Shown: positions 4,136 through 63,322 of the stretch, piece by piece
Layout: each line of letters begins with the position of its first letter
How positions within the stretch are numbered: position 1 is the first letter of the stretch
From: Sphyrna mokarran
Lineage: Eukaryota
Direction: 5' to 3'
Assembly: GCA_024679065.1 (NCBI GenBank)
Contig: JAGIQG010000017.1
Span: forward strand, 50,220,001 to 50,284,000
DNA: 64,000 nt
The notes under the pieces: generated by a model
The model's input: the letters and a program-made list of their open reading frames with translations, nothing else
What the model was told of the DNA's origin: nothing
Databases searched by the model: none
Translations under genes and position numbers: made by a program

Positions 4136-4810
4136 ATTTCACCAAAAGGTGTTGTGTTTTATTTTGTAGATGTTTGCAGACACTGAGATAAACCCAACTC
4201 CCAGTACTGAATGGAGAAGGTATGGCCAGCTGCATTTTTCAAAAGTTCCTTTAATGTGACGGCTGATTACATGAATAACGGAAAGATTTCATGAACTGAT
4301 GATAGAATGAGCCATCTCACCACTTGTTTTTGATGCATTATGATAAACCTTATTAATTCTTCATGCCACCACAGCATGATGTTAGTGTACCTTTAAATCA
4401 CGTTCTCTGCAGTTCTCACAGCCTCAGCATTTTCCATTGTTGCTGAGCTGTCTGGGGAAGTCCTTTTATTGCTACTTCAATGGCTTAAATGGGGTTTTAT
4501 TTATTTTTACTATGGGCCTCAGGTGCTTTCTGGGATTGTTTTATGATCCTGAACTGTTAGAAGGAAGACAGTTTTTTTTTTCATAGTGAATTCAAGGTTT
4601 CATTTTCTGTTTCGCTGTTGGCTGGCGTTTTTGTTTAGAAGGGGTGGATGTCAGACTAAAAACAGTGTCTTTCTCTCTCTCTCCCTGGTACTGGAAATTC
4701 TGCTGGTTAATTGATAGTAAGGCTTTTTGCGTTTCTGAAGTGGAAAATCTGCTTTTGATGGTTGGCTTGTCGAGAGTCTCTCTCTCTCTCCCTGGCGTTC
4801 TGGGAAGCTG

Positions 4811-5016
4811 GCAGAGTAAGGCATCTCACAACACTAGATTAAAGTCCAACTGGTTTATTTGAAATCATGAGCTTTCAGCGTACTGCTGTTCACTCACCTG
4901 ATGAAGGAGCAGGACTCCGAAAGTTTGTAATTCAAATAAACCTGTTGGGCTTGAACCTGCTGTTATGAGACTTCTTGCTGTGTCCCCCTCCCCAGTCCAA
5001 TGCTGGCATCTCCACA
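4811..5016 (+). mobile_element. Palindromic Penelope-derived non-autonomous element
   Basis: Arms ~4811-4895 and ~4900-4985 are imperfect reverse complements; flanked by ttctgggaa(g/a)ctg at 4798-4810 and 5017-5029. Confidence 0.8.
4894..4930 (+). ncRNA. Minimal hammerhead ribozyme motif (degenerate)
   Basis: tcac-CTGATGA-a-GGAG-cagga-CTCC-GAAA-gttt-gtaa. Confidence 0.6.
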
Positions 5017-6289
5017 TTCTGGGAAACTGCTCTGACTTCAAACTGTTCTGGGTGTATCCAGAGGGCTGCCAGAAGTTACAAGGTTGAGAAGTCAGAGCTT
5101 TAATTCTCAACCAAAGGATTGAAGCTTGTTCTGACTCCAAGTATGTGTGTGTGTGCCTCAAGAGAATTGCAAAATTCAAGCCAATGCTTAAATTCCAGTA
5201 TCCAATGAGCATTAGTCTTTGCTGTGTTAAACCTGTGGCAATGGTTTTGTTTATGAGATTCATTTCATTGGAATGGTGTTTAGCTTGTAAAGTTGATACT
5301 ATAATCGCGATTTATTTTCCCTCGTTTATAATTGGTAAAAGTTATTGCTAATTTTCTTTCTATGCATGTTAACTGTATTTTAAATAAACTTTGTTCGATA
5401 AAAGCTCCCTAGTGGGTCATTTGAATCAGTCCATCCAGTGAAATTTCTTTTGCTCAACCTTGCCAAATTCAAATTGCAAAATATGATCCAGGCAGACTTC
5501 ATAAAACACTTTGGGGTTTTTGATCTGAATTATAACAACAGCAAAGTTTTTTTCTTAAATGAGTGAAGTGTTTGCTTAATGCACACATTAAGAAAATAAG
5601 GATTACGTGCAAGTTTTCAGCAAATTGCCAAACTGCCATTTTTCTTCCTCTCAATATTTCTCCCTCTCTACAGCTTATATATTTTAGGTAATTAGATATA
5701 TTATTCTCATATGATGTTTACATCTGCAGAACACGAGATCAAAAATCAGAACCCAAAACCAGATTCCCGTCCAAAGTGTTTGCTGCGCTTACAAAGCAAC
5801 AAAATATGAGACCATTTACCCTAGTGATAAAGTCTATTTGCTGTTAAACAGGCAAGACATTTTCGAATCACCGTTACAAATTATGCCAGAAGATCTTCAA
5901 CGTATGTGAACTAGTTTTCCTTAACGCTGCAGTAAACAGAATGGTGTCCCAATTCTTGATGGGAATACCTCCAGCTGAATCTCATCCATGAATTTCCAAT
6001 CCGATAATGCAATGCACCAAAAGGCTGCTGCACATCTCACAACCTCCCCGTCTACCCATTAGATAAGAAATTATTTTTCTGTCATTCACATTGCAAGAGT
6101 CAAGTACAGAAATGAGAATATAGCAGATAACCGACCGATCCCAAAAGAAACACCAAAATCTCAGAATAATCTAATCCATTCATTTAGTTAAATGGCCAAT
6201 CCTTCTATTAAATGTTGCACATTTTGTGCAATCTTCCCCCAATCCACTCATAAAAGGGTTAACATCCCATACCACAAACCCCCACCACT

Positions 6290-32579: not shown

Positions 32580-34060
32580 AGACAAAGCAGGAAACCACAA
32601 ACCAGTTAGCTGAACATCTGCCATGGGGAAAATATGAGAAGCCATTACTAAAGATGTTCCAGTAGGGCGCCTGAAAAAATTCACAGCAATCAGGCAGACT
32701 CAACATTGTTTTAAGAGAAGGAAATCACCAATTTCTCCTTTGAAGGAGAAATGTGAACAAGTGGATATATGGGCAGCACAGTAGTTAGCACTGCTGCTTC
32801 ACAGCTCCAGGGACCAGGGTTTGATTCCCAGTTTGGGTTACTGTCTGTGCACATTCTCCTCATGTCTGCATGGGTTTCCTCCGGGTGCTTCGGTTTCCCT
32901 CCTACAGTCCAAAGATGTGCAGGTTAAGTTGATTGACCATGCTAAAAATTGACTTTAAATATGTAGATTAGCGGGATTAGTGGGTAAAATATGTAGACAT
33001 ATGGGGCTAGAGTCTGGATGGGATTGGGGTCGGTTCAGACTCGATGGCCAAATGGCCTCTTTCTGTACTAGACCGTTTCTATGATATTGTGCTTAGATAT
33101 TTGATAAGGTGCCATATCAAAAGTTATTGTATAAAATTAAAGCTCTTGGTATAGGGGTAACATATTGGCATGGAATGAAGACTTTCCTGTTTGCTGGCCA
33201 AAGAGTTGGCACAAATGGGTCATTTTTTGGCAGTCGGGATGTGACAAGTGGTGTGCCACAGGGATCAGTGCTGGGGGTCTCACTTTGTACAATTTATATG
33301 AATAATTTGGGTGAAGGGACTCATAGTGTGGTTGCTAAATTCGCTGATGACACAAAGATAAGCAGTAAAGTAAATTGCAAAAAGGGATGCAGAGAGGCCA
33401 CAGAGGGATATAGATATGTTAAGTGAGTGGGCCAAATTTTAGCAAATGGGCTATTATGTGAGCAAATGTGAAACTGTCCATTTTGACAGGAAGAATTAAA
33501 AAACTCATTATCTAAATGGTGCAAGATTGCAGGGCTCCAGTATTTCAGAGGGATCCGCGTGTCTGAGTGCATGAATCACAAAAGGCTAATAATATAGATA
33601 CAGTATGTAATTAGAAAATTCATGGAATTGAATACATAAATAGGGAGATTTACCTCAGTGGTACAGGGGATTGGTGAGATCTCATTTGTGTACACCATTG
33701 TGTACAGTATTGATCTCCTTATTTAAGATGTAAATATATTAGAAGCTGTTCAGAGAAGATTTACTGGGCTAATACTGGGGATGGGCAGGTTGTCTTCTTA
33801 TGAGGAAAGGTTAAACAGGTTAGGCGTGTATCCAGTAGTTTTTTTACGAGAGTAAGAAGTGATTTAATTGAAATCTTTAAGACTCTGAGGGACATTGAAA
33901 GGGTGGACGTGAAGAGGAATGTTTCCTCTCGTCAGAGAAGTTAGAACTAGTAGTTGCTCATTTGAGATGGTAATGAGGAGAATTTTTTCTCTGAGGGTCA
34001 TGCGACTTTGAAATTCTCTTCCTTAAAAGGCAGTGGAAGTTCCTAATTTATATGTTCTGG
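32580..34060 (+). mobile_element. Old CR1 ORF2 RT region interrupted by an HE1 SINE
   Basis: ORF 33109-33426 [19 protein letters not shown]; multiple frameshifts. Confidence 0.85.
32771..33085 (+). mobile_element. HE1-type V-SINE
   Basis: Same subtype as 1016-1334. Confidence 0.88.
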
Positions 34061-34369
34061 GTTCAACCTTAGCCTTCCTCTGACCATTTCTGCATGACAG
34101 AAATGTCAAAATGTCTTTAAAAAGACATTTGGATCCTTGGTTACATTAGTCAGAAATCTATTTTCATGTTGTGACTTTTATTCCCTTTCAGATCTCCTCT
34201 GTACTTTTTATATTTAACTTGGCGCTCTGTTGTATTACAAAGATTACCATCATCATTAATCTTTTTTTCTATCTGATTTTAATCTTTGCATCTGCAGTCA
34301 TAAACAAAGAACAAACTTTGAGATGCAGTTCCTTCTCCCTCTCAGAAACGTGTCTGCTCTGGACCAGAT

Positions 34370-35632
34370 CATAGAACATAGAACACTACAGCACAAACAG
34401 GCCCTTCGGCCCACAAGTTGTGCCGAACACATCAAAACCTACCCAGCCATAGACCTATCTATAACCCCCAATCCCATTGGATCCCATATACTCATCCAGA
34501 AGTCTTTTAAAAGACCCCAGCGAGGTCGCCTCGACCACCACCGACGGCAGCCGATTCCATTCACTCACCACCCTCTGAGTGAAAAACTTTCCCCTAGCAT
34601 CCCCTCTGTACTTGCTTCCCTGCACCTTTAATCTGTGCCCTCTCGTCGCGACCATTTCAGCCCTGGGAAATAGTCTCTGAGAGTCCACCCTATCTATTCC
34701 TCTCAACAGCTTGTAAACCTCTATCAGGTCGCCTCTCAACCTTCGTCTCTCCAGGGAGAACAGCCCCAGCTCCCTCAACCTGTCTTCATAAGGCATGCCT
34801 CCCAATCCAGGCAACATCCTTGTAAATCTCCTCTGCACCCTTTCAATAGCTTTCACGTCCTTCCTATAGTGAGGCGACCAGAACTGCGCACAGTACTCCA
34901 AGTGTGGTCTGACAAGGGTCCTATAAAGCTGCAGCATTACCTCCTGACTCGTGAACTCAATCCCTCGATGAATGAAGGCCAGTACACCGTAAGCTTTCTT
35001 AACCACATCCTCCACCTGGGAGGCCGATTTGAGAGTCTTATGGACCCGGACCCCAAGATCCCTTTGCTCTTCCACACAGCTAAGACTCCTACCTTTGATA
35101 GTGTACTCATTCATCCCGTTGGATCTGCCAAAATGGACCAAAACACATTTATCCGCGTTGAAGTCCATCTGCCACTTCTCCGCCCAGTCTTGCATCCGGT
35201 CGATGTCCTGCTGCAACTTTTGACATCCCTCCAGACCATCCACAACACCACCGACCTTCGTGTCATCGGCGAACTTACTCACCCATCCCTCCACTTCCTC
35301 ATCAGGTCATTTATGAAAATGACAAACAGCAAGGGTCCTAGAACAGATCCCTGGGGTACTCCACTGGTGACTGACCTCCATGCAGAAAAAGAGCCATCCA
35401 CAACCACCCTCTGCCTTCTGCAGGCAAGCCAGTTCTGGATCCACAAGGCCAAAGCCCCTTGGATCCCAGGGCCTCTCACCTTCTCAAGAAGTCTTGCATG
35501 TGGGACCTTGTCAAATGCCTTGTTGAAGTCCATGTACACCACATCCACTGCTCTTCCTTCGTCAATGTGTTCAGTCACATTTTCGAAGAACTCAATTAAG
35601 CTTGTAAGGCACGACCTGCCTTTTACAAAACC
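34370..35632 (-). mobile_element. Young 5'-truncated CR1 (RT domain, one frameshift near 35300)
   Basis: ORFs 35279-35578 ([21 protein letters not shown]) and 34455-35294 ([14 protein letters not shown]); (atagaac)n tail; many CpGs retained. Confidence 0.95.
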
Positions 35633-36044
35633 TAATCATCCCCTCCATTGTTCAGCTATTGATTCTGCTTGTGAATTTTTGCATTCCAACTGATTTAGGC
35701 CTGGTCTCCATTTCGACTCCCTGAAGTTAGTCCTTTACCAGTTAAATATTTTTACACTTGCCCTTTTCCAAAGACATTCTCGACCTGCTCATTTTGTCAC
35801 TGTTTCCCAATGACTGCTCCCTCAGCCCACCCTGAAACTTGCTCAATTACTTCATTTCCCAGAAGGGGTTCCTTTCTCATTCAAAACACACTGATCTCTT
35901 GTACACATTTCAGGGATTCTTCTCTGTGTCCTTCACACAGTTGCTAACCCCAATCTATCCGAGGATAATTAAACTAAGGGAGAGGTGTTGGTATTGTGGT
36001 AATGTCACTGAATTTGGGAAGCTGAAACCCAGATTAATGCATTA

Positions 36045-36999: not shown

Positions 37000-39230
37000 C
37001 TTGTAAATACTGACACACTCCACAACAAGTTCAGAAAAGATAGGGAAATAAGGAAAGGAGATGGGAATTGGAGGGGTGGTGTGGGGGGGCGGTGGTAAGA
37101 GTAGATATTAAAGAGAACAATACAGTGCTGGAGAGAGCAGTATTCTGGGCCCATCAAGTACAGAATCAATTTGGGTTGGAGTTAAGAGAAAGTGTTCAAC
37201 TACATGATCTTATTTTTTAAAATAAGGCCAACTCAACAAAAGAGCAAATCTGCTGGGAAATTACAGAGAGGTGCAAGAATTTTACAGTCATGATAATAAG
37301 AGAATTAAGTTATCCTAATTTAAACTCAGATAGTATTTGTATAAAGGGCAGCAAGGAGAAAGTTCTTAAGTGTGCTCAGGTGAATTTTCTCAGTGAGGTA
37401 TAAGGTCTGCATCTGGTGTCTGGGGAATGAGGTGGGTCAAATAGACCATGCAGGGGGAGCACTTAGGAAACATTGATCCAAATATAAGGCTAGCTATCGC
37501 TAAAGACAAGAAGGATTATAGGGTAACAATAAATAACTGAGAGCCAATTTTAGTTCATCAAGAAGGAATCTACTCCAGGTAAACTAGAATCCAAGATTGG
37601 CAGACAAAACTGTAATAGTTTGTATGTCAGATGTAAGGTTAATAATGAGTAATAGGTTGCCCACGGAAAGTTCAGCGGGACAGTGAAAACAGAAATGAGC
37701 CACAAAGAGAGAGCATGAGCAGCAACTAACACAATGGAAAATTCAAACAATCTTCTATATGTCTATAAATGCTAAGACAATTATGAGGGCAGAAAGTCTG
37801 GTTGAGATTTAAAATGTGTACTTCACAGCTGTCTTTATCAAGGAAGATGCCGGAAAATGAAAATAAAAGAGGGGTTGATGGAGATCCTGGTTGGATTGAT
37901 TGTCGGGTAGCATGGTGGCACAGTGAGTGATTGGCACTGATGCCTCACAATACCAAAGACGCAGGTTTGGTTAGTAATAAATGGTTTTTCAGATTGGAGA
38001 AAGACTTGCAGTGGAGTTCCCCAGGGGTCAATGTTGGGACCCTTGCTCTTCCTAATTTCTATTAATGACCAAGACTGTGTGATCACAGTGTGATTTCAAA
38101 ATTTGCAGATAATAGAAAGACTGGAAATACTGCCATATGTGATGAGGATAGTCTTGAACTTCAAATGGATGTAGACACGTTGGTGGTTTGGCAGACAACT
38201 GGCAGGTGAAGTTTAACACAGAAGTGCAAGATGGTTAATTTTGTCATTTTCATATAAAGAGACAGTACAGAATAGAATTAGATGGTCTAAAAGAGGTGCA
38301 GGAATGATGTGTATATACATAAGTCTTTAAAGAAAGAGCAATTAATAAAGCATATAGTCTTTTGGGCTCTTTTAATAGGAACAGTGGGTAGACGAGTGAA
38401 GAAATAATGTTGAACTTGTAAAAAAACACTAACTCGTTACATCTTGTCTGGAGTACCATATCCAGTTCTGGGCAGCATACTTGAGGAAGGATATGAATAC
38501 ATTGTAAGAAGGAGATTCACAAGAATGATTCCAGGGATAAAGAATTATGGGAATAGATTGGTGAGGTTGGGACTGTTTCTCTTGCTGAAAAGAAGGCCAA
38601 GAGGAGACCTGATAGAGATATTCAAGATACTGAGGAGTATGGGGGTAAATAGTAAGAAACTGTTCCCATTCAGATCCATCAAGAATTTTAAGTTTATTTA
38701 TTAGTGTCACAGGTAGGTTGACATTAACAGTGCAATGAAGTTACTGTGAAAATCCCCTATTTGCAACACTCCTGTGCCTGTTTGGTTATACAGAGGGATA
38801 ATTTAGCATGGCCAATGAATCTCACCAGCAAGTCTGTGGGAGGAAACCCATGCAGACACATGGAGGATGTGCAGACTCCACACAGATAGTGACTCAAGCC
38901 AGGAATCAAACCTGGATCCCTGGTGCTGTGAGCAGCAATGCTAGCCACTCTGCTATCCCATTTAATGGGCAAAAAGAGCAAAACTGATGAAGGGGGGAGA
39001 GGGGGAACAATTTTCACCCAGAGAGTGATTGGAGTCTGAAACAAACTTCCTGAGAGGGTGGTGGAGGCAGGCTCGATCAAAGTATTCAAAGGGGAATTGG
39101 ATTGCTATCTGAAAAGCGAAAATATGCAAGGGATAAGGCACGGGAGTGGATTAGGTACGATATTCTTTCAGACCAAGGGCAGATCCAATGGGCTGAATGG
39201 TCTCCTTCTGCATTGTAAAGGTTCTGCAAT
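37000..39230 (+). mobile_element. Old long CR1 ORF2 remnant with SINE insertions
   Basis: gcagtggagttccccaggggtcaatgttgggaccc (SGVPQGS.LGP), RRFTRMIPG, RGDLIEIFKI and a CR1 tail at ~39190-39230. Confidence 0.8.
38686..38958 (-). mobile_element. V-SINE family B
   Basis: aagtttatttattagtgtcacag tail through to head, reverse strand. Confidence 0.85.
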
Positions 39231-39281
39231 TCTCACATTCTCACGTAACTATTCTAACCCGACTGAAATCAAGAAACATTT

Positions 39282-39960
39282 CATAGAAACATAGAAGATA
39301 GAAGCAGGAGGCGGCCATTTGGCCCTTCGAGCCTGCTCTGCCATTCATTGCGATCATGGCTATTCATCCAACACAATAGCCTAATCCTGCTTTTTCCCCA
39401 TAACTTTTGATCCCATTTGCCCCAAGTGCTGTATCCAGCCACCCCTTGAGTACATTCAATGCTTTGTCATCAACTATTTCTTGTGATAATGAATTCCACA
39501 ATTTTTTGGGTGAAGAAATTAAAAAGTTAGAAGTTTTATTTATTAATTACAAATAAGGCTGACATGAACACTGCAGTTAAATTACTGTGAAATTCCTCTA
39601 GTCGCCACAATCTGGAACCTGTTTGGGTCAACGTACTTAACTCGCATGTCTTTCAGAATGTGGGAGGAAATCCATGCAGACGTGAAGAATGTGCAGACAC
39701 CACGCCATCCAAATGTCTCCTCATCTCTGTCCTAAATAGTCTATCCCAAATTTTCAGACTGTGACCCCTGGTTCTGGACTCCCCCACCATTGGGAACATC
39801 CTTCCTGAATCTATCCTGTCTAGTCCTGTTAGAATTTATGAGATTTCCCCCTCATTCACCTGAACCCTGCAAAAACGATCTTAACCTAGTCAACCTCTCC
39901 TCATACATCAGTCCCACCCATCCCCGGAATCAGCTTGGTAAACCTTCGGTGCACTCTCTC
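39282..39960 (-). mobile_element. CR1 3' fragment containing a family-B SINE piece (~39522-39700)
   Basis: catagaaacatagaagatagaagcaggaggcggccatttggccc tail. Confidence 0.8.
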
Positions 39961-39968
39961 GAGAACAA

Positions 39969-40095
39969 TATGGAGATGCTGGCGTTGGACTGGGGTTTCA
40001 CCTGATGAAGAGGGAAACCTCGAAAGCTCATGAATTTACTTTCAAATAAATCGGTTGGACTTAAACCTGGTGTTGTCAGACTTCTTACTGTGTTT
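39969..40095 (+). mobile_element. Penelope-derived short element with TSD
   Basis: Same family as 4811-5016; flanked by actc(t/c)ctcgagaacaa at 39953-39968 and 40096-40111. Confidence 0.8.
39997..40034 (+). ncRNA. Minimal hammerhead ribozyme motif, core intact
   Basis: ttcac-CTGATGA-a-GAGG-gaaa-CCTC-GAAA-gctc-atgaa. Confidence 0.7.
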
Positions 40096-40975
40096 ACTCC
40101 CTCGAGAACAACTGATAGTAGAGAAGATGGAGGTACCGTCATCTATTGGAATTAAGGTTGTCAGTTCTGAATAGGAGGTTTCATTGCGTGGCCTCCTGCC
40201 TATACAGTCCCGCCCAAACAAACAGCCTTTTTACCCACTTCCACCAAAGAACTGCAATTAAAGTAAATTTTAAAAAAATACAAAATCCTCTTATATTTCT
40301 CCTGAAATGCTTGCACCAGTTCCCAGGCATTTAATCTTCAATGTTAACAAACTCCAGAGCAATCCAAGCTGGGCAACAACTCAAACTAGGATACCAAACA
40401 AAAGTTGGCCCAAGGTCCATTACAAATTGTAGAGCTATTCATCATTTTAAAAGGTTTCTTTCTAATAGTTTGAGGTAAGTAACTTGCCCTAAATGGAATC
40501 CAAAGAGGCTTGCAGCTCACAATACTTGGTGTTAATTACACACCAATCTAATTCTAACTGCTGTTTATATTTTTTGTTGCTATAAATAAGGTTTTGTTTC
40601 ACACAAAGCACTGCCTAAACTTTACAAGTTGTTTTCAGCTGCATAATAGGAATTTTGTAGAAACAAAAAAGCTCTTGGGCGAATTACAGCCCTTCAAAAC
40701 AAAGCTGGGCTCAGAATTTTTGGTACAGTCCCAAACCTCCAATAGTATCACTTTTCACAATCACTCTGCCAGCCTCTTCAAACAAGGGGAAGCAAACGCT
40801 CAGTCACAATGATGCATGTAGCATCTAAATGATTGCAAGTTCTTGCCAAGTTAATGGCTTCAATTTATTTTAACCTTCTGAATGCTAATAAGGCTATTGG
40901 AATAGGGGTAGACGGTTCAGCCCTCAGAGCCTGCTACGCTATTTAATAAGATCATGGCTGATCTAAAATTCACCA

Positions 40976-41099
40976 GGCAGGATTTTACAGCTTTGCTCGA
41001 GCGAGACTGGAAATTCCCACCCAAAGTCAACGGACATTTCCATTGTCCGCCCCTCATCCGCTCCGATTTCATGGCAGGGTGGGCCAGTAGAATTCCGAC
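40976..41099 (+). mobile_element. MITE-like ~120-bp element
   Basis: Imperfect inverted termini ggcaggattttac / gtagaattccgac. Confidence 0.6.
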
Positions 41100-41189
41100 G
41101 ACTACATTCACTTTCCTGTTTTCTCTCCGTAACCCTTAATCCCCAACTGATTAAAAACTTATCCATCGCAGAATTGAAAATGTTCAAGG

Positions 41190-41492
41190 AGCGGCATGAT
41201 GGCAGTGGTTAGCACTGCTACCTCAGTGCCAGGGACCTGGTTCGATTCCTGGTTTGGGTCACTGTCTGTGTGAAGTTTGCATGTTCTCCCCATGTCTGGC
41301 ATGGGTTTCTTCCCATAGCCCAAAGATGTGCGGGTTAGGTTGAGTGGCCACACTGAATTGCTCCCAAGTGACAGGGAACTAGCTAGAGTAAATGCATGCA
41401 GTTATGGGGATAGGGTCTTGGTGGGATTGTGGTTGATGCAAACTTGATGGGTCAAATGGCCTCCTTCAACACCGTAGGATTTTACGGATTCC
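41190..41492 (+). mobile_element. HE1-type V-SINE
   Basis: Head, V domain and CR1 tail. Confidence 0.88.
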
Positions 41493-41928
41493 ACAGCTTC
41501 CTGGGATAAAGAATTCCAAAGATTCACCACTCAGAGAGTGAATTTTTCCTCAAACCTATCTTAAAAGAACACCCTTTATTCTGCGATTGTGCCATCTGGT
41601 CCTACACTCTCCCATAAGTGGAAATGTCCGCCCAACACTTAGCCTGCCTAACCCACTAAGAATCTCATATGTTCCAATCATGCCACCTCTCATTCTTCCG
41701 AGCTCTAAGGAGTACAGAGCCATCCTGCTTACGCTCTGATGCACACACACAGAAGTGACTTGTGAAGTGTGAGAGCTTCATACTAGAAGCAAGATTACAA
41801 TTCGAGATCAGTCTTTCAAAGAAACACTTATACACGCAAAGGATGGTGAAATGAACTCTTTTCCACAAATGACAACTGATAAGAAGTTAGTTGATTTTTT
41901 TTTTATATTTTGAGATCGACAAGAGAAA

Positions 41929-42110
41929 GAATTCTACTGCCCCGCCCACCATGGAATTGGAGCGAGCGAGGGGTGGACAACGGAAATGTCCACCAACTTC
42001 GGGCCGGAATTTCGCTCAAGCGAGGCTGTAAAATCCCGCTCAATGAATTTTAGATCAGCCAAGATCTTGTTAAATAGTGGAGCAAGTTCGAAGGGCTGAA
42101 TGGCCTAATA
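41929..42110 (-). mobile_element. MITE-like element plus CR1 tail, inverted counterpart of ~40908-41099
   Basis: Reverse complement shares the ggctgatctaaaattca..ggattttacagc junction. Confidence 0.7.
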
Positions 42111-57060: not shown

Positions 57061-58748
57061 GAACAAAGAACAAAACAGCACGGGAAACAGGCCCTTCGGC
57101 CCAATGAGCCCGTGCCGCCACCCCGATGTTCCCACGTCTACCCGCGATCCCTGTCCATGTTTATAGATCTATGGATTAACAACCAAATTTGAGACAATTT
57201 AGGGAGAATCTGTTTTGCCAATTAGCCTAAGAGCACATCTTTGGGATGTGGGAGGAAACCGGAGCTCCCGGAGAAAACCCACGCAAGCACGGGGAGAATG
57301 CGCAAACTCCCACAGATACAGGCCCAAATCCATGTATCTGCACAGCCCAGCGATAGTCACTGAGCTGTCGCGTTGCCCATCAAATGGTCCAGGTCAAGCA
57401 TACACTAACAGCGTGAAGCACTAGGATACTCTCGAAAAAAATCCAAGAGCAGCCCTCTCACAACCATTGCGTGTATACACCTTGTTAGACAACAAGGTGG
57501 ACTAAAGCACCTGTAGGATAAAAACAAGTACATCAATATCATCATCTATTTACATACTTCCCAGGGACTCCCAAGACTCATGATCCCTATTTTAAATCAG
57601 TTTTCTATACCCCTCCATTCCCATTCTGTTCATGCGCCCATCTAAGTATTTCTTAAATAACTCCAGAGTACCTGCCTCCACCACTTTACTTGGCAGCGCA
57701 TTCCATACCCGCACCACCCTCTGTGTGAAGAAACTCCCTCTAGCATCCAAATTATACCTTACCCCCCTCACCCTAAACCCGTGACCCCTTGTGCTATTTG
57801 AGTCCATCCTAGGAAAAAGCTTAACCCTGTTTACTCTATCTATACCCTTCATAATCTTGTACACCTCTATTAGATCACCTCTAAGTCTACGTCTTTCTAA
57901 GGAAAACAGTCCCAATTTGCCTAACCTCTCCTCATAACTCAGACCTCCTATATCAGGCAGCATCCTGGTAAACCTCCTCTGCACTCTCTCCAGAATCTCC
58001 ACATCCTTCCGGTAGTAGGGTAACCAGAACTGGACACAGTATTCTATATGAGGTCTAACCAACATTTTATACAACTGCAACATTAAAGGCCAGCTCTTGT
58101 ACTCTATATCCCTTCCTATAAAGGCTAACATACTATATGCTTTCTTCACAACCTTCTCCACTTGCTCTGCCACCTTCAGAGATTTGTTCACCTGCACCCC
58201 TAGGTCCCTCTGCGTTTCTATACTCTTAATAGGTCTACCCTTTATCATATACCTCCCCCCTACATTCTTTCTCCCAAAATGCATCACCTCACATTTATCA
58301 GGATTGAATTCCATCTGCCATCTATCTGCCCAAGCTACCACCTATGTCCTGCTGCATCCCTGACAATGCCCTCACTATCCGCAAGTCCAGCCATCTTTGT
58401 ATCGTCTGCAAACTTGCTGATCACTCCACTTACTCCCTCTTCCAAGTCATTTATATATATTACAAATAGAAGAGGTCCCAGTACCGAGCCCTGCGGCACA
58501 CCACTAGTGACCGACCTCCAGCTAGAAAAACACCCTTCCACTATTACTCTCTGTCTCCTATTACTAAGCCAGTTACTTATCCATCTAGCTACCTGTCCTT
58601 GTATCCCATTAGCCTTGACCTTCTCAACTAACCTCCCATGAGGGACTTTGTCAAACGCTTTACTAAAATCCATATAGACGACATCAACAACTCGCCCGTC
58701 GTCCACTGTTTTCGTCACCTCCTCAAAAAATTCTACCAGATTCGTAAG
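57061..58748 (-). mobile_element. Young 5'-truncated CR1 with V domain in the 3' UTR
   Basis: ORFs 58335-58718 ([27 protein letters not shown]) and 57592-58341; tail (gaacaaa)n; inserted in an older CR1 tail (57001-57060 and 58749-58855). Confidence 0.95.
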
Positions 58749-59076
58749 GGCAAAAGGGCAAACGTTGCAGGGACATAAGGAAAGGATAGTGCTCAGGTAC
58801 TAGGAGAAATGCTCAAGTACAATGGGCCGAATGGGCTCCTTCTGTGCTGCAACCACAGGGCCTGGATAGCTGAAAGCATGGTCACCAATGATGGCGATGG
58901 AAAGAGACCAGAATTAAAGGAACACAGAGTTGAATGGCTGAGGAGATTATCGAGAGACAGGGAGAGAAGGGTAAAGTCAGGGAAGGATTTGAAACCAAGT
59001 TGAGAATTTGTAATTCAATCTCCAATATAGTCTGATGAGCATAGGAGTGATGGGAAAATGGTGTAATAAGGTCAAA

Positions 59077-59167
59077 GTGATTCCAAATATACCCGTTGGA
59101 CTTTAACCTGGTGTTGTGAGACTTCTTACTATGCCCGCCCCAATCCAACCCCGGCATCTCCACATCT
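59077..59167 (+). mobile_element. Penelope-derived short element, 3' half only
   Basis: gtgattccaaat..gttggactttaacctggtgttgtgagacttcttac..ggcatctccacatc; tcaaagtg repeated at 59072-59079 and 59172-59179. Confidence 0.8.
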
Positions 59168-59469
59168 AACATCAAAGTGTAACAAGGTTGAAAGGACCCG
59201 AACAAAAATTGAGACGTCAAGAAGCAGGACTTGAGTTTTAAAAGTGTGGGAGGCTGAGTGGGTTAAGGAGGCAAGTGATGACTCAATTCAGATGCACTAG
59301 TGCATTAAACAGCTCTCCCAGACCTTGGTGCCATTGTCTCATATTCTTCTTAGATTACACATATATTGCAGTCATAAAAATGTAGTACAAATTATAATAG
59401 CAAGCTGCAGCTCCAGAAAAGCTTTTAACATGTCAAAATGTAACACCTCCTTTTAGTGCTACAATCGAG

Positions 59470-60862: not shown

Positions 60863-61279
60863 CATCTGGGGTTTTAAAAAAAAAGTTCACCGTGTTCCCC
60901 CACCTCTTAGCAGAACAGACACTTTCTCACAGGATGGTGCTGATGCACCAGATTTAGATTAACTTTCTTTGCAAGCTGACCCACTCAAACACAAAGTAAA
61001 AACTGCAACATTAGGAATAATCAATAGTGCCAGAACCCAATTAGTGTCGGCTATTTACATGGGTCACAGCAATCCACTTTCCAACAGCCCTTCACAATAA
61101 ATGGACAAGTTGCTATAATTGCATCATTATTCTTTTCGAGTAATTCACAGGCTGGGAGTGTCGCTAATGAAGCCAGCATTCCTTTGTCCATCCCTGGTTA
61201 CCCTTGCGGCAGTGATGAACTGGTGAACTTCATGTAGGGAGGGTACTTTGCACTGTTGCTGAGCAGGGAGCTTTGCAAA

Positions 61280-61545
61280 GTCAGGGACCCAGGTTTAATT
61301 CCCGGCTCGAGTGACAGTGTGGAATCTGCATGTTCTCCCCGTGTCTGTGTGGGTTTCCTCCAGGTGCTCTGGTTTCCTCCCTCATGCCAAGATGAGCAGA
61401 TTAAGTAGGTTGGCCATGCACAATTGCCCGATAGTGTCAGGGATTACTGTGGTAAATATGAGGTTATGAGGCTAAGGTCTTGTTGGGATGTTGCTGGTGC
61501 AGGCTCGATGAGCCAAGTAGCCTGCTTCTGCACTGTCGGGATTTT
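61280..61545 (+). mobile_element. HE1-type V-SINE (5' clipped), after a family-C-type LINE tail on the minus strand (~61145-61275)
   Basis: cagggacccaggtttaattcccgg, V domain and CR1 tail. Confidence 0.8.
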
Positions 61546-61606
61546 ATTTTGTGGTATTACTAAGATGGCATAAGTACAGAAAATACCACGCAATGTGGAT
61601 AGAGAT

Positions 61607-61985
61607 TGTACCCAAACAGGTGCCCAAGTGTGGCGACTTGGGGATTTTTGCAGTAACTTCATTGCAGTGTTAATGTAAGCCTACTTGTGACACTTTGTTT
61701 TTTTATAAGTTTATTTGTTAGTTACAAGTAAGCTTACATTAACACTGCAATTAAGTTACTGTGAAAATCCCATAGTTGCCACACCCCAGCATCTGTTAGG
61801 GTACAGTGAAGGAGAATTTAGCATGGCCAATCCAGCACATCTTTGCACTGTGCGAGGAAACCGGAGCATCCGGAAGAAACCCACACAGACACAGGGAGAA
61901 CCTGCAAAAGTGACCCAAGCCGGGAATCAAATCCGGGTCCCTGGCGCTGTGAGATAGCGGTGCTACCCACTGTGCCATCATGCTG
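61607..61985. mobile_element. Two family-B SINEs tail-to-tail (+ tail 61607-61694; minus copy ~61705-61985)
   Basis: cagtaacttcattgcagtgttaatgtaagc faces its reverse complement gcttacattaacactgcaattaagttactg. Confidence 0.85.
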
Positions 61986-63322
61986 TCCAGTTAATAATCA
62001 ATCAGAACCCTGACCCAGTGACTGTGAAGAGACAGTAATACATGGCCACATTGGAGGATAACCCGCATATGATTGCAGACGGATCCTTGTCTCTCTCTGT
62101 GTTAGAAGTCATGGGTCTGACCTGAAAAACAGCTGCATTAACTAAAATAACAATTAATGCTGGCCCTTCAGATTGCACCACGATGTGACGGACTGAGCGA
62201 ATTCTCTGGGAGAAATGATGAACATGAGAAAAATCAAAGACTCTGCCTTCATTTTCCCCTCATGGCAAAAATAATTCCATTACATAAACTACACAAAACC
62301 CCACAGCTTCCACTTTGTTACCCATCAAGATCCGACTCCCACTCCATTTCATAATGGAATAAAAATTTTCTGGCAGGATTTGAAGGGGCCGAGAGGCAGC
62401 GAGTTATAAATGAGAATATCACACCTTTCAAAACAATTGATTTATACAGAGTTTCCTCTCAATTGTGTATTTAATTTTGCAGTGAGTCATATCCTACGTA
62501 GTGACTTGCTGCAAGGTACAACACAGGAGGAAGACCAGCTTCATTGCCATAGCAACCAGCCATTCCAATTCACATCTGTGTATGAGATGTCCCCAGCGGC
62601 ATTTTGTATAAATAGGTTTCTTTTTCTTTAAGCTTTAACAAGGCTCCTTATATATTAATTTTTTTGGGTACCAGAATAAGCATTTGGATGTAAATTATGC
62701 AAATTTGCAATGATTTTGATACTGGGTGTTCAGCAGTGAATGAATAACCACACGTGAAGAATTACTACAAATTAAACCTTAGCCTTTCCTCAAACACCAT
62801 TTCTGTTTTCAATTCAAAGGATCAAAAGAAAGGAATCAAAAATATTCCAGATGTCGTGTTTTATTGACAATGATTTAAAGATTCAACGACGTTCTTTCTC
62901 ATCATTAAAAATGTCACGTGGGCGAAGAACACACATTTGCTGAACCACCATTAATCCCAGAACTGTGACCTTTCACGCTCACAGACAGAAATTATTCCTC
63001 AACCATTTTAAATCAAGCCGACAGTTCTCTCTGTCAGAGTGCGAGCTTAGGATGATTGGAACAGAATGGATCTTTAGCTGGTCATGAAACTGCAAAACAC
63101 AAAAGGTGCAGGGTTCAAACCCCATTCTCAGAACTGCTGGCAAGTGGAGTGCAGAGGTTGTCTCTGGACCAGCATCCAGCATGAATACATATGTCCAGTG
63201 GGGTGGGTGGATGGGCACCACTTTCTCCTCCTCTCCACCCACTCCCACCTCACCAACAAATAGATGAAGATCCCATTAAACTCTCCTGTGATGTAGGATT
63301 AACCATCCTATCAGCTATTATT

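Follow-up and report, generated by a model that had tools for sequence, protein, structure and literature searches.

The insert and its hammerhead motif

The window, i.e., the whole 64-kb stretch of DNA analysed here, contains a short insert of 127 bp (39969-40095) that is enclosed by a 16-bp direct repeat and carries a minimal hammerhead ribozyme motif with its core at 40002. Three copies of the family were found in the window, including this one. The annotated features are as follows.

39953-39968, plus strand: left copy of the 16-bp repeat, a likely target-site duplication, inside the end of an older LINE-like fragment (repeat search)
39969-39996, minus strand: 3' tail of the family (about 28 bp) in inverted orientation, forming the 5' part of the insert (opposite-strand matches, contig joints)
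39997-40095, plus strand: direct arm, a 5'-cut, pLTR-like terminal repeat with the tail-less end (window comparisons, contigs)
39997-40001, plus strand: 5' strand of hammerhead stem I, TTCA (39997-40000) followed by C40001 at position 2.1 (sequence, folding)
40002-40009, plus strand: core C3 to A9 (CUGAUGA; CTGATGA at 40002-40008, read from the window sequence) with the extra base A40009 directly after it, between 9 and 10.1 (sequence; consensus in Fig. S3 of PMC4209133)
40010-40021, plus strand: stem II of 4 bp, GAGG (40010-40013) with CCTC (40018-40021), closing a 4-nt GAAA loop, with G10.1-C11.1 present (sequence, folding)
40022-40029, plus strand: G12 to A15.1 (GAAA, 40022-40025), then G-C-T-C (40026-40029), with self-complementary AGCU at 40025-40028 and C40029 as H17 (sequence; PMC4209133)
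40030-40034, plus strand: 3' strand of stem I, A40030 (mismatched with C40001; G in most relatives) followed by TGAA (40031-40034) (contig letter shares)
40046-40051, plus strand: AATAAA 3' of the ribozyme, common to the family copies, a possible polyadenylation signal (sequence)
40096-40111, plus strand: right copy of the 16-bp repeat (repeat search)
4811-5016, plus strand: second family copy, with an inverted tail-less arm (about 4811-4885), a direct arm with the core at 4898 and the tail at 4990-5016 (window comparisons)
59080-59167, plus strand: third family copy, a tail-bearing 3' piece whose cut lies downstream of the ribozyme (window comparisons)

The letters and coordinates of the motif had been given correctly in the preliminary description of this DNA, as had an insert of about 127 bp with a 16-bp direct repeat containing one mismatch (15 of 16 positions are identical) and the GGAG/CUCC stem II of the copy at 4898, found as GGAG/CTCC in the sequence. 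Position by position, the motif at 40002 agrees with the published consensus (Fig. S3 of PMC4209133): CUGANGA, the extra base before 10.1, the GAAA and U-H at 16.1-17 are all present, which bears out its assignment in the preliminary description to the minimal type-I hammerheads carried by Penelope-like elements. Stem II reaches the length of at least four base pairs closed by G10.1-C11.1, stem III is absent and positions 15.2-16.2 are palindromic. The AGCU at 40025-40028 would be a vestigial stem III that would pair in a dimer, and C40029 is the predicted cut site. The copy at 4898 has a non-palindromic AGUU at the place of the palindrome and U at position 17.

A minimal-hammerhead descriptor matched the window at two places (40002 and 4898) and none of 300 equally long order-2 Markov windows; as the descriptor was composed with both motifs already known, this result speaks for the rarity of the motif and not for its function. 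A CTGATGA...GAAA arrangement at 59032-59057, about 20 bases upstream of the left repeat of the third copy, fails the descriptor and is probably due to chance. Rfam gave no match at the gathering score in the whole window and no hammerhead match at E<=10 in 39900-40200, where the only match (mir-593, E 3.9) was taken as chance.

Structure of the insert and of the other copies in the window

A direct repeat scoring as high as the one around the insert was found at only one of 1500 random window places with like geometry and a tolerance of six bases. The first part of the insert (39969-39996) matches 4990-5014 and 59138-59162 on the opposite strand, with 88% identity over 25 bp in each case, and the tail has three matches within the window against none in 100 shuffles. 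The insert does not read as a single linear unit. What is new here is that its first 28 bases are shown by these matches to correspond to the reversed 3' tail of the family and that they precede a tail-less, 5'-cut direct arm. Across 39953-40111, the first copy of the duplication is thus followed by the inverted tail, by the direct arm, which runs from the ribozyme to the tail-less end, and by the second copy of the duplication.

The left flank shows LINE-like homology, with 39892-39965 corresponding to 57923-57995 and to 29573-29502; it represents a minus-strand fragment of a related LINE. Since the left repeat copy lies inside the end of this LINE-like fragment, the insert landed in an older repeat.

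The second copy (4811-5016) is flanked by a 13-bp direct repeat (4798-4810 and 5017-5029, 12 of 13 identical), with one of 1500 random places scoring as high. The third copy (59080-59167) has an 8/8 direct repeat (59072-59079 and 59172-59179) that is weak, being matched by 12 of 1500 random places; a 13-bp duplication considered for this copy was rejected, with three of 13 positions agreeing as placed and 8/8 being the best there. Both the insert and the second copy are two-armed, each has the tail once, on one arm only, and their tail-less arms end within a few bases of one family position. The two ribozyme-bearing copies (n=2) begin 4-8 bases upstream of the CUGAUGA core. Their cores are 35,104 bp apart and no other core was found in the window. 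A 34-bp direct repeat (4664-4697 and 4773-4806, 74%) with a CT run is located just upstream of the second, palindromic copy.

Search for a coding parent

The window has a G+C content of 38-46% and a CpG observed/expected ratio of 0.30, and 27% of its length is similar to other parts of the same DNA. About 20 copies of an abundant SINE-like repeat were observed, two of them inverted and close together at 61276-61998 (inverted match 61607-61805, 76%). The Pfam scan covered 26 of the 29 frames of at least 110 aa (all except those at 34260-34631, 35279-35635 and 58204-58641) and yielded RVT_1 at 58338-58799 (E 1.5e-16) plus one weak, unrelated match below the cut-off. By its motifs, the RVT_1 match is taken to be LINE-type. 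LINE-type reverse-transcriptase fragments were observed at 57592-58799 and also near 33250, 35362 and 38013, and presumably belong to CR1/L2. Base composition, internal repeats and these fragments indicate a vertebrate genome, possibly that of a cartilaginous fish. A six-frame scan with four short motifs gave four LINE-type matches and no Penelope-type match, the GVPQG motif being located at four window places.

Neither the Pfam scan of these 26 of 29 frames nor the six-frame scan with the four motifs revealed a Penelope-type reverse transcriptase or GIY-YIG domain. As no frame combining the two was found in the copy or in the window, the insert is not classed as a full, autonomous Penelope-like element. 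The tie to an autonomous element is one that we infer from the architecture, since Penelope coding sequence was not found in the window.

The family in sequencing contigs of four organisms

Contigs from four of 24 sequencing runs (X1, X2, X7 and X12, representing four organisms) were aligned to 39850-40450 at 80% likeness. Between 5,980 and 24,307 contigs per run were aligned on this 601-bp stretch, a count that takes the element and the LINE-like flank together. The summed contig depth, which is not a copy number, reaches 1.6 to 5.0 million at 40060-40080 compared with 5 to 18 on the unique right flank, i.e., up to 10^5 times the unique flank. The repeat family is very abundant. The preliminary description of a retroposed element is in keeping with this, as the repeat around the motif is retroposed, has a high copy number and is bounded by a target-site-like duplication.

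Opposite-strand joints leading from 39994 or 39996 to 40096 or 40095 were found in all four runs, one joint in 6, 4, 2 and 6 contigs and the other in 10, 5, 0 and 6 contigs (X1, X2, X7 and X12, respectively), and from these joints it follows that the tail directly follows the body in other copies. In ten of the 15 joints listed (there are 22 further ones), the inverted tail meets a 5' cut point that differs from joint to joint and lies between 40035 and 40078, and the intervening letters frequently form a longer inverted arm. Flipping of the tail, combined with variable 5' cutting, is a habit of the family. Two types of 3' end were observed. Contigs either exit into unrelated flanks at 40089-40091 (69-278 records per row, agreement 0.33-0.35, in all four runs) or run on into the tail at 40097 (101 to 416 records). 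Two 3' ends about 30 bases apart together with many 5' cut points read as the published signature of Penelope-like elements.

One X1 contig has zero differences over 40071-40450 and may come from the very source of the window. In X7, where 39997-40038 has hardly any cover, an 858-base contig (record 32) fits from exactly 40096, the first base of the right repeat copy, and its 14 preceding letters do not fit; this hints at a possible empty insertion site in that organism. In X1, C to T at 40060 was observed in about half of the depth compared with at most 1% in the other runs, and more of the letters at 40030 are non-G; these shares possibly reflect a subfamily that expanded only in that organism. 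Scans of sequence collections for the family body, for the ribozyme with AATAAA and for the tail revealed no family copy; three loci from these scans (one match and two matches) have no BLAST similarity to the window and were discarded as chance.

Conservation of the ribozyme letters

At the family level, stem I is paired from 1.1-2.1, where the majority letter G40030 pairs with C40001 (X1, X2 and X12). Position 40030 is G in 77% (X1), 98% (X2) and 99% (X12) of the aligned depth, with X7 having no cover there. As the majority G would close stem I, the C40001-A40030 mismatch of the insert, directly beside the cut site, sets this copy apart from most of the family. CA is likewise read in the inverted arm of the 4.9-kb copy and about a quarter of the X1 depth is non-G at 40030, so the mismatch may be a subfamily inheritance and not private decay. 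Private CpG decay as its origin was found not to be secure, as T40029 is the majority letter while A40030 is rare in X2 and X12. On present comparisons either CpG decay or inheritance within a subfamily may lie behind the mismatch. At 40029 (H17), T makes up 57-66% of the depth.

Among the rows listed, the only core position with variation of 10% or more is 40006, which corresponds to the free position N7; the change there is possibly CpG-related. This is a weak sign of core conservation. At least nine gap-free contig pieces (X1, X2 and X12) have the same length variant as the insert. The loose-end consensus in all four runs revealed a second subfamily with a GGAGC...GCTCC-type stem II resembling that of the copy at 4898. 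Stem II is GAGG/CCUC in the insert and GGAG/CUCC at 4898, the pairing being kept between the subfamilies, and the change looks like compensation. A one-base register shift explains the difference between the two copies equally well, the comparison being one of two copies and one further consensus and not of a phased alignment.

Predicted folding and activity

Folding predictions, whose energies exclude hammerhead tertiary core contacts and protein help, gave stem II a probability of 0.996 in the isolated 38-nt motif, with three to four stem I pairs. When 12 extra upstream bases are included, GGGGUUUC from the inversion junction pairs with the stem II loop and the 3' strand (0.99), and the probability of stem II together with an open core is 2e-5. 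For the 127-nt insert the same probability amounts to 3e-5, and for a 261-nt context to 1e-3, with the rival hairpin at 0.8-0.99. The folding z-score of the 127-bp insert is -0.96. In the 4.9-kb copy, a long palindrome is predicted to bury the core in a single hairpin of -77 kcal/mol, with a probability of 2e-8 for stem II and an open core.

The lone copy at 40002 is predicted to be inactive. The mismatch beside the cut site, the flipped tail that traps stem II and the lack of a near partner make the copy a likely passenger relic. The word intact, which the preliminary description had applied to the ribozyme, cannot be kept for this copy: beside the cut site, stem I has a mismatch where most relatives have a pair, and the predicted rival hairpin and the lack of a nearby dimer partner also speak against it.

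Comparison with known systems

Minimal hammerheads (min-HHRs) were described in the pLTRs of metazoan Penelope-like elements by Cervera and De la Pena in 2014 (PMC4209133). According to that paper they number thousands per genome in fish, amphibians and reptiles, most of them being single dispersed motifs that probably represent truncated elements, and monomers do not cleave whereas dimers cleave slowly. The dimer model is summarised in PMC6765202 and the minimal hammerhead form is covered in PMC6155905. Like the min-HHRs of PMC4209133, the motif at 40002 has CUGANGA, the extra base, G10.1-C11.1, a short stem II, GAAA, a G-C palindrome, U-H and a short stem I, and has no stem III. By layout, the nearest of the motifs listed in Fig. 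S3 is that of Chrysemys picta bellii, with which it shares GAAA-G-C-U-H and the downstream AAUAAA. It differs from the Fig. S3 examples in its stem sequences and in the 1.1-2.1 mismatch of the insert, and no cartilaginous fish is named in that figure.

Insertions of Penelope-like elements are reported to have often an inverted, 5'-cut pLTR arm and a tail of 30-40 bp on one end (PMC3846280, PMC8557442, PMC8969392). In the anole element Poseidon PAc, two reverse-transcription start sites delimit the tail, cleavage and extension affect both strands of the DNA, and the hammerhead cuts only with protein (PMC11167929). The family resembles Pen2a/Pen3a of Adineta vaga (PMC3846280), the elements of PMC8557442 and Poseidon PAc (PMC11167929) in its inverted, head-to-head 5'-cut arm, in a 30-base tail confined to one arm, in having two 3' ends and a target-site duplication, and in the hammerhead located in its terminal repeat. 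Unlike in these elements, the arms enclose no frame, and in the insert the inverted arm is just the tail. The duplications of the two-armed copies are 13-16 bp long as opposed to 8-10 bp in published Penelope-like insertions (PMC3846280).

A third comparison concerns the non-LTR retrozymes of animals, which consist of tandem units with canonical hammerheads and form circular RNAs (Cervera and De la Pena 2020, PMC7229834). Li, Clavereau and Pollet (2026 preprint, 10.64898/2026.07.22.740005; Li et al. below) define a retrozyme by at least two ribozyme-bearing tandem units; they sampled one cartilaginous fish and report that vertebrate retrozymes derive from pLTRs, have solo monomers and form families of 51 to 972 bp. 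The insert resembles these elements (PMC7229834; Li et al.) in being non-coding and pLTR-related, in its type-I hammerhead and in that solo monomers are possible. It differs from the plant LTR retrozyme, which has a type-III hammerhead in its LTRs and a 4-bp duplication, in its type-I layout, the lack of an LTR pair and the 16-bp repeat. Among the papers searched, none was found to describe this particular family, which may have an entry in Repbase or Dfam; the supplementary tables of Li et al. may also list it.

By its layout the family may belong to the Neptune clade of Penelope-like elements.

Interpretation

We favour, as the probable reading, that the insert is a 5'-cut copy of the end of a very abundant minimal-hammerhead repeat with its 3' tail flipped to the front, that this repeat is most likely a Penelope-like pLTR and that the lone copy is predicted not to cut. 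Features of Penelope-like terminal fragments were observed throughout, namely an inverted 5'-cut arm head to head with a direct arm, a tail of the 30-40 bp kind at one end only with two 3' termini, and variable 5' truncation with a target-site duplication. The many distinct 5' cut points favour a truncated longer Penelope-like element over a dedicated non-autonomous family. Against such an end-piece stand the two ribozyme-bearing copies (n=2) that both start 4-8 bases 5' of the core, which is unexpected from random 5' cutting, and the duplication of 16 bp, which exceeds the 8-10 bp given in the rotifer paper (PMC3846280).

This shared start just 5' of the core keeps alive a dedicated non-autonomous family, i.e., a mini-element of about 130 bases with a hammerhead head and a Penelope tail that has its own transcription and borrows the enzymes of Penelope, a reading that we consider possible but rather unlikely. 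Apart from the term retrozyme, it corresponds to the inference drawn in the preliminary description. All three window copies are shorter than 210 bp and none adjoins a Penelope frame, and gap-free relatives of the length variant of the insert are present in X1, X2 and X12 (at least nine). A pLTR alone can be mobilised in trans (PMC3846280) and non-autonomous pLTR-forming elements have been reported (PMC8557442). However, the shared start is a matter of two copies, the 5' ends otherwise vary with at least ten cut points between 40035 and 40078, the 59-kb copy has no ribozyme, and heavy 5' truncation alone yields many solo end-pieces (PMC4209133; Li et al.).

That the insert is a dispersed monomer of a non-LTR retrozyme, produced when a tandem-repeat RNA was cut by its hammerhead, circularised and re-inserted, is improbable. 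Vertebrate retrozymes do derive from pLTRs and do have solo monomers (Li et al.), but a search of 38000-42000 found no tandem array, and the window has just the two widely spaced cores. The motif is minimal and not canonical (PMC7229834), the 6-bp helix I and the contacts between loop 1 and loop 2 of the canonical retrozyme hammerhead (PMC4209133, PMC7229834) being absent, and the copies end at the tail and at varied 5' points and not at the cut site. With neither tandem units nor a canonical hammerhead, the insert is not classed as a retrozyme, and the term retrozyme-like used in the preliminary description finds no support.

That the host has retained this copy as a functional ribozyme or RNA element is still more improbable: the core and stem II are letter-perfect, but at the pair beside the cut site the copy differs from most of the family, the predictions favour the rival hairpin, and the X7 contig that fits exactly from 40096 hints that the insert is absent there. 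A chance motif within an unrelated short repeat can largely be dismissed, since the lack of an Rfam hammerhead match and the modest folding z-score are outweighed by two observed motifs versus none in 300 simulated windows, both in the same family and at the same place, by stem II variants that stay paired and by the full fit to the published consensus (PMC4209133).

Proposed origin and significance

If the insert is the end-piece of a Penelope-like element, its origin may be sketched from published work on such elements. A GIY-YIG endonuclease would have made a staggered cut, giving rise to the 16-bp duplication, and the reverse transcriptase, with both DNA ends as primers, would have started on the element RNA at two sites about 30 bases from each other. 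One cDNA, begun at the outer start site, would have copied the 28-base tail only, while a second cDNA of about 100 bases, begun at the inner site, would have halted just past the hammerhead; the two would then have been joined head to head. The ribozyme would have been carried along because it is located in the last 130 bases of the element. In the parent element it may cut slowly after position 17, either as a tandem-copy dimer through the AGCU palindrome or with the help of the element protein.

The locus holds a genuine minimal hammerhead motif within what is likely the end-piece of a Penelope-like element, and this copy is probably inert. The kind is already known from the minimal hammerheads of Penelope-like elements described in 2014 (PMC4209133) and the single copy is ordinary; it matters little by itself, as min-HHRs at Penelope ends occur in thousands per genome (PMC4209133). 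The family as such may be of more use, since it is unsettled what these ribozymes do, the hammerhead being dispensable for insertion of the anole element in vitro, where hammerhead mutants still insert (PMC11167929). A comparison of subfamily consensus sequences would reveal whether selection acts on the core and stem II among copies that jumped, and the two-armed insertions are relevant to the unsettled second-strand step of Penelope transposition.

A bolder proposal, which we hold only tentatively and consider unlikely as it stands, is that of a hammerhead-headed mini-retroelement of about 130 bases that was amplified by Penelope across several related vertebrates, with the ribozyme fold as its 5' limit and with a stem II that was swapped yet stayed paired. 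If it were true, the two-armed insertions with duplications of 13-16 bp would be a genome-scale record of double priming at a staggered cut, and the family would provide a natural test of the importance of the ribozyme for mobilisation.
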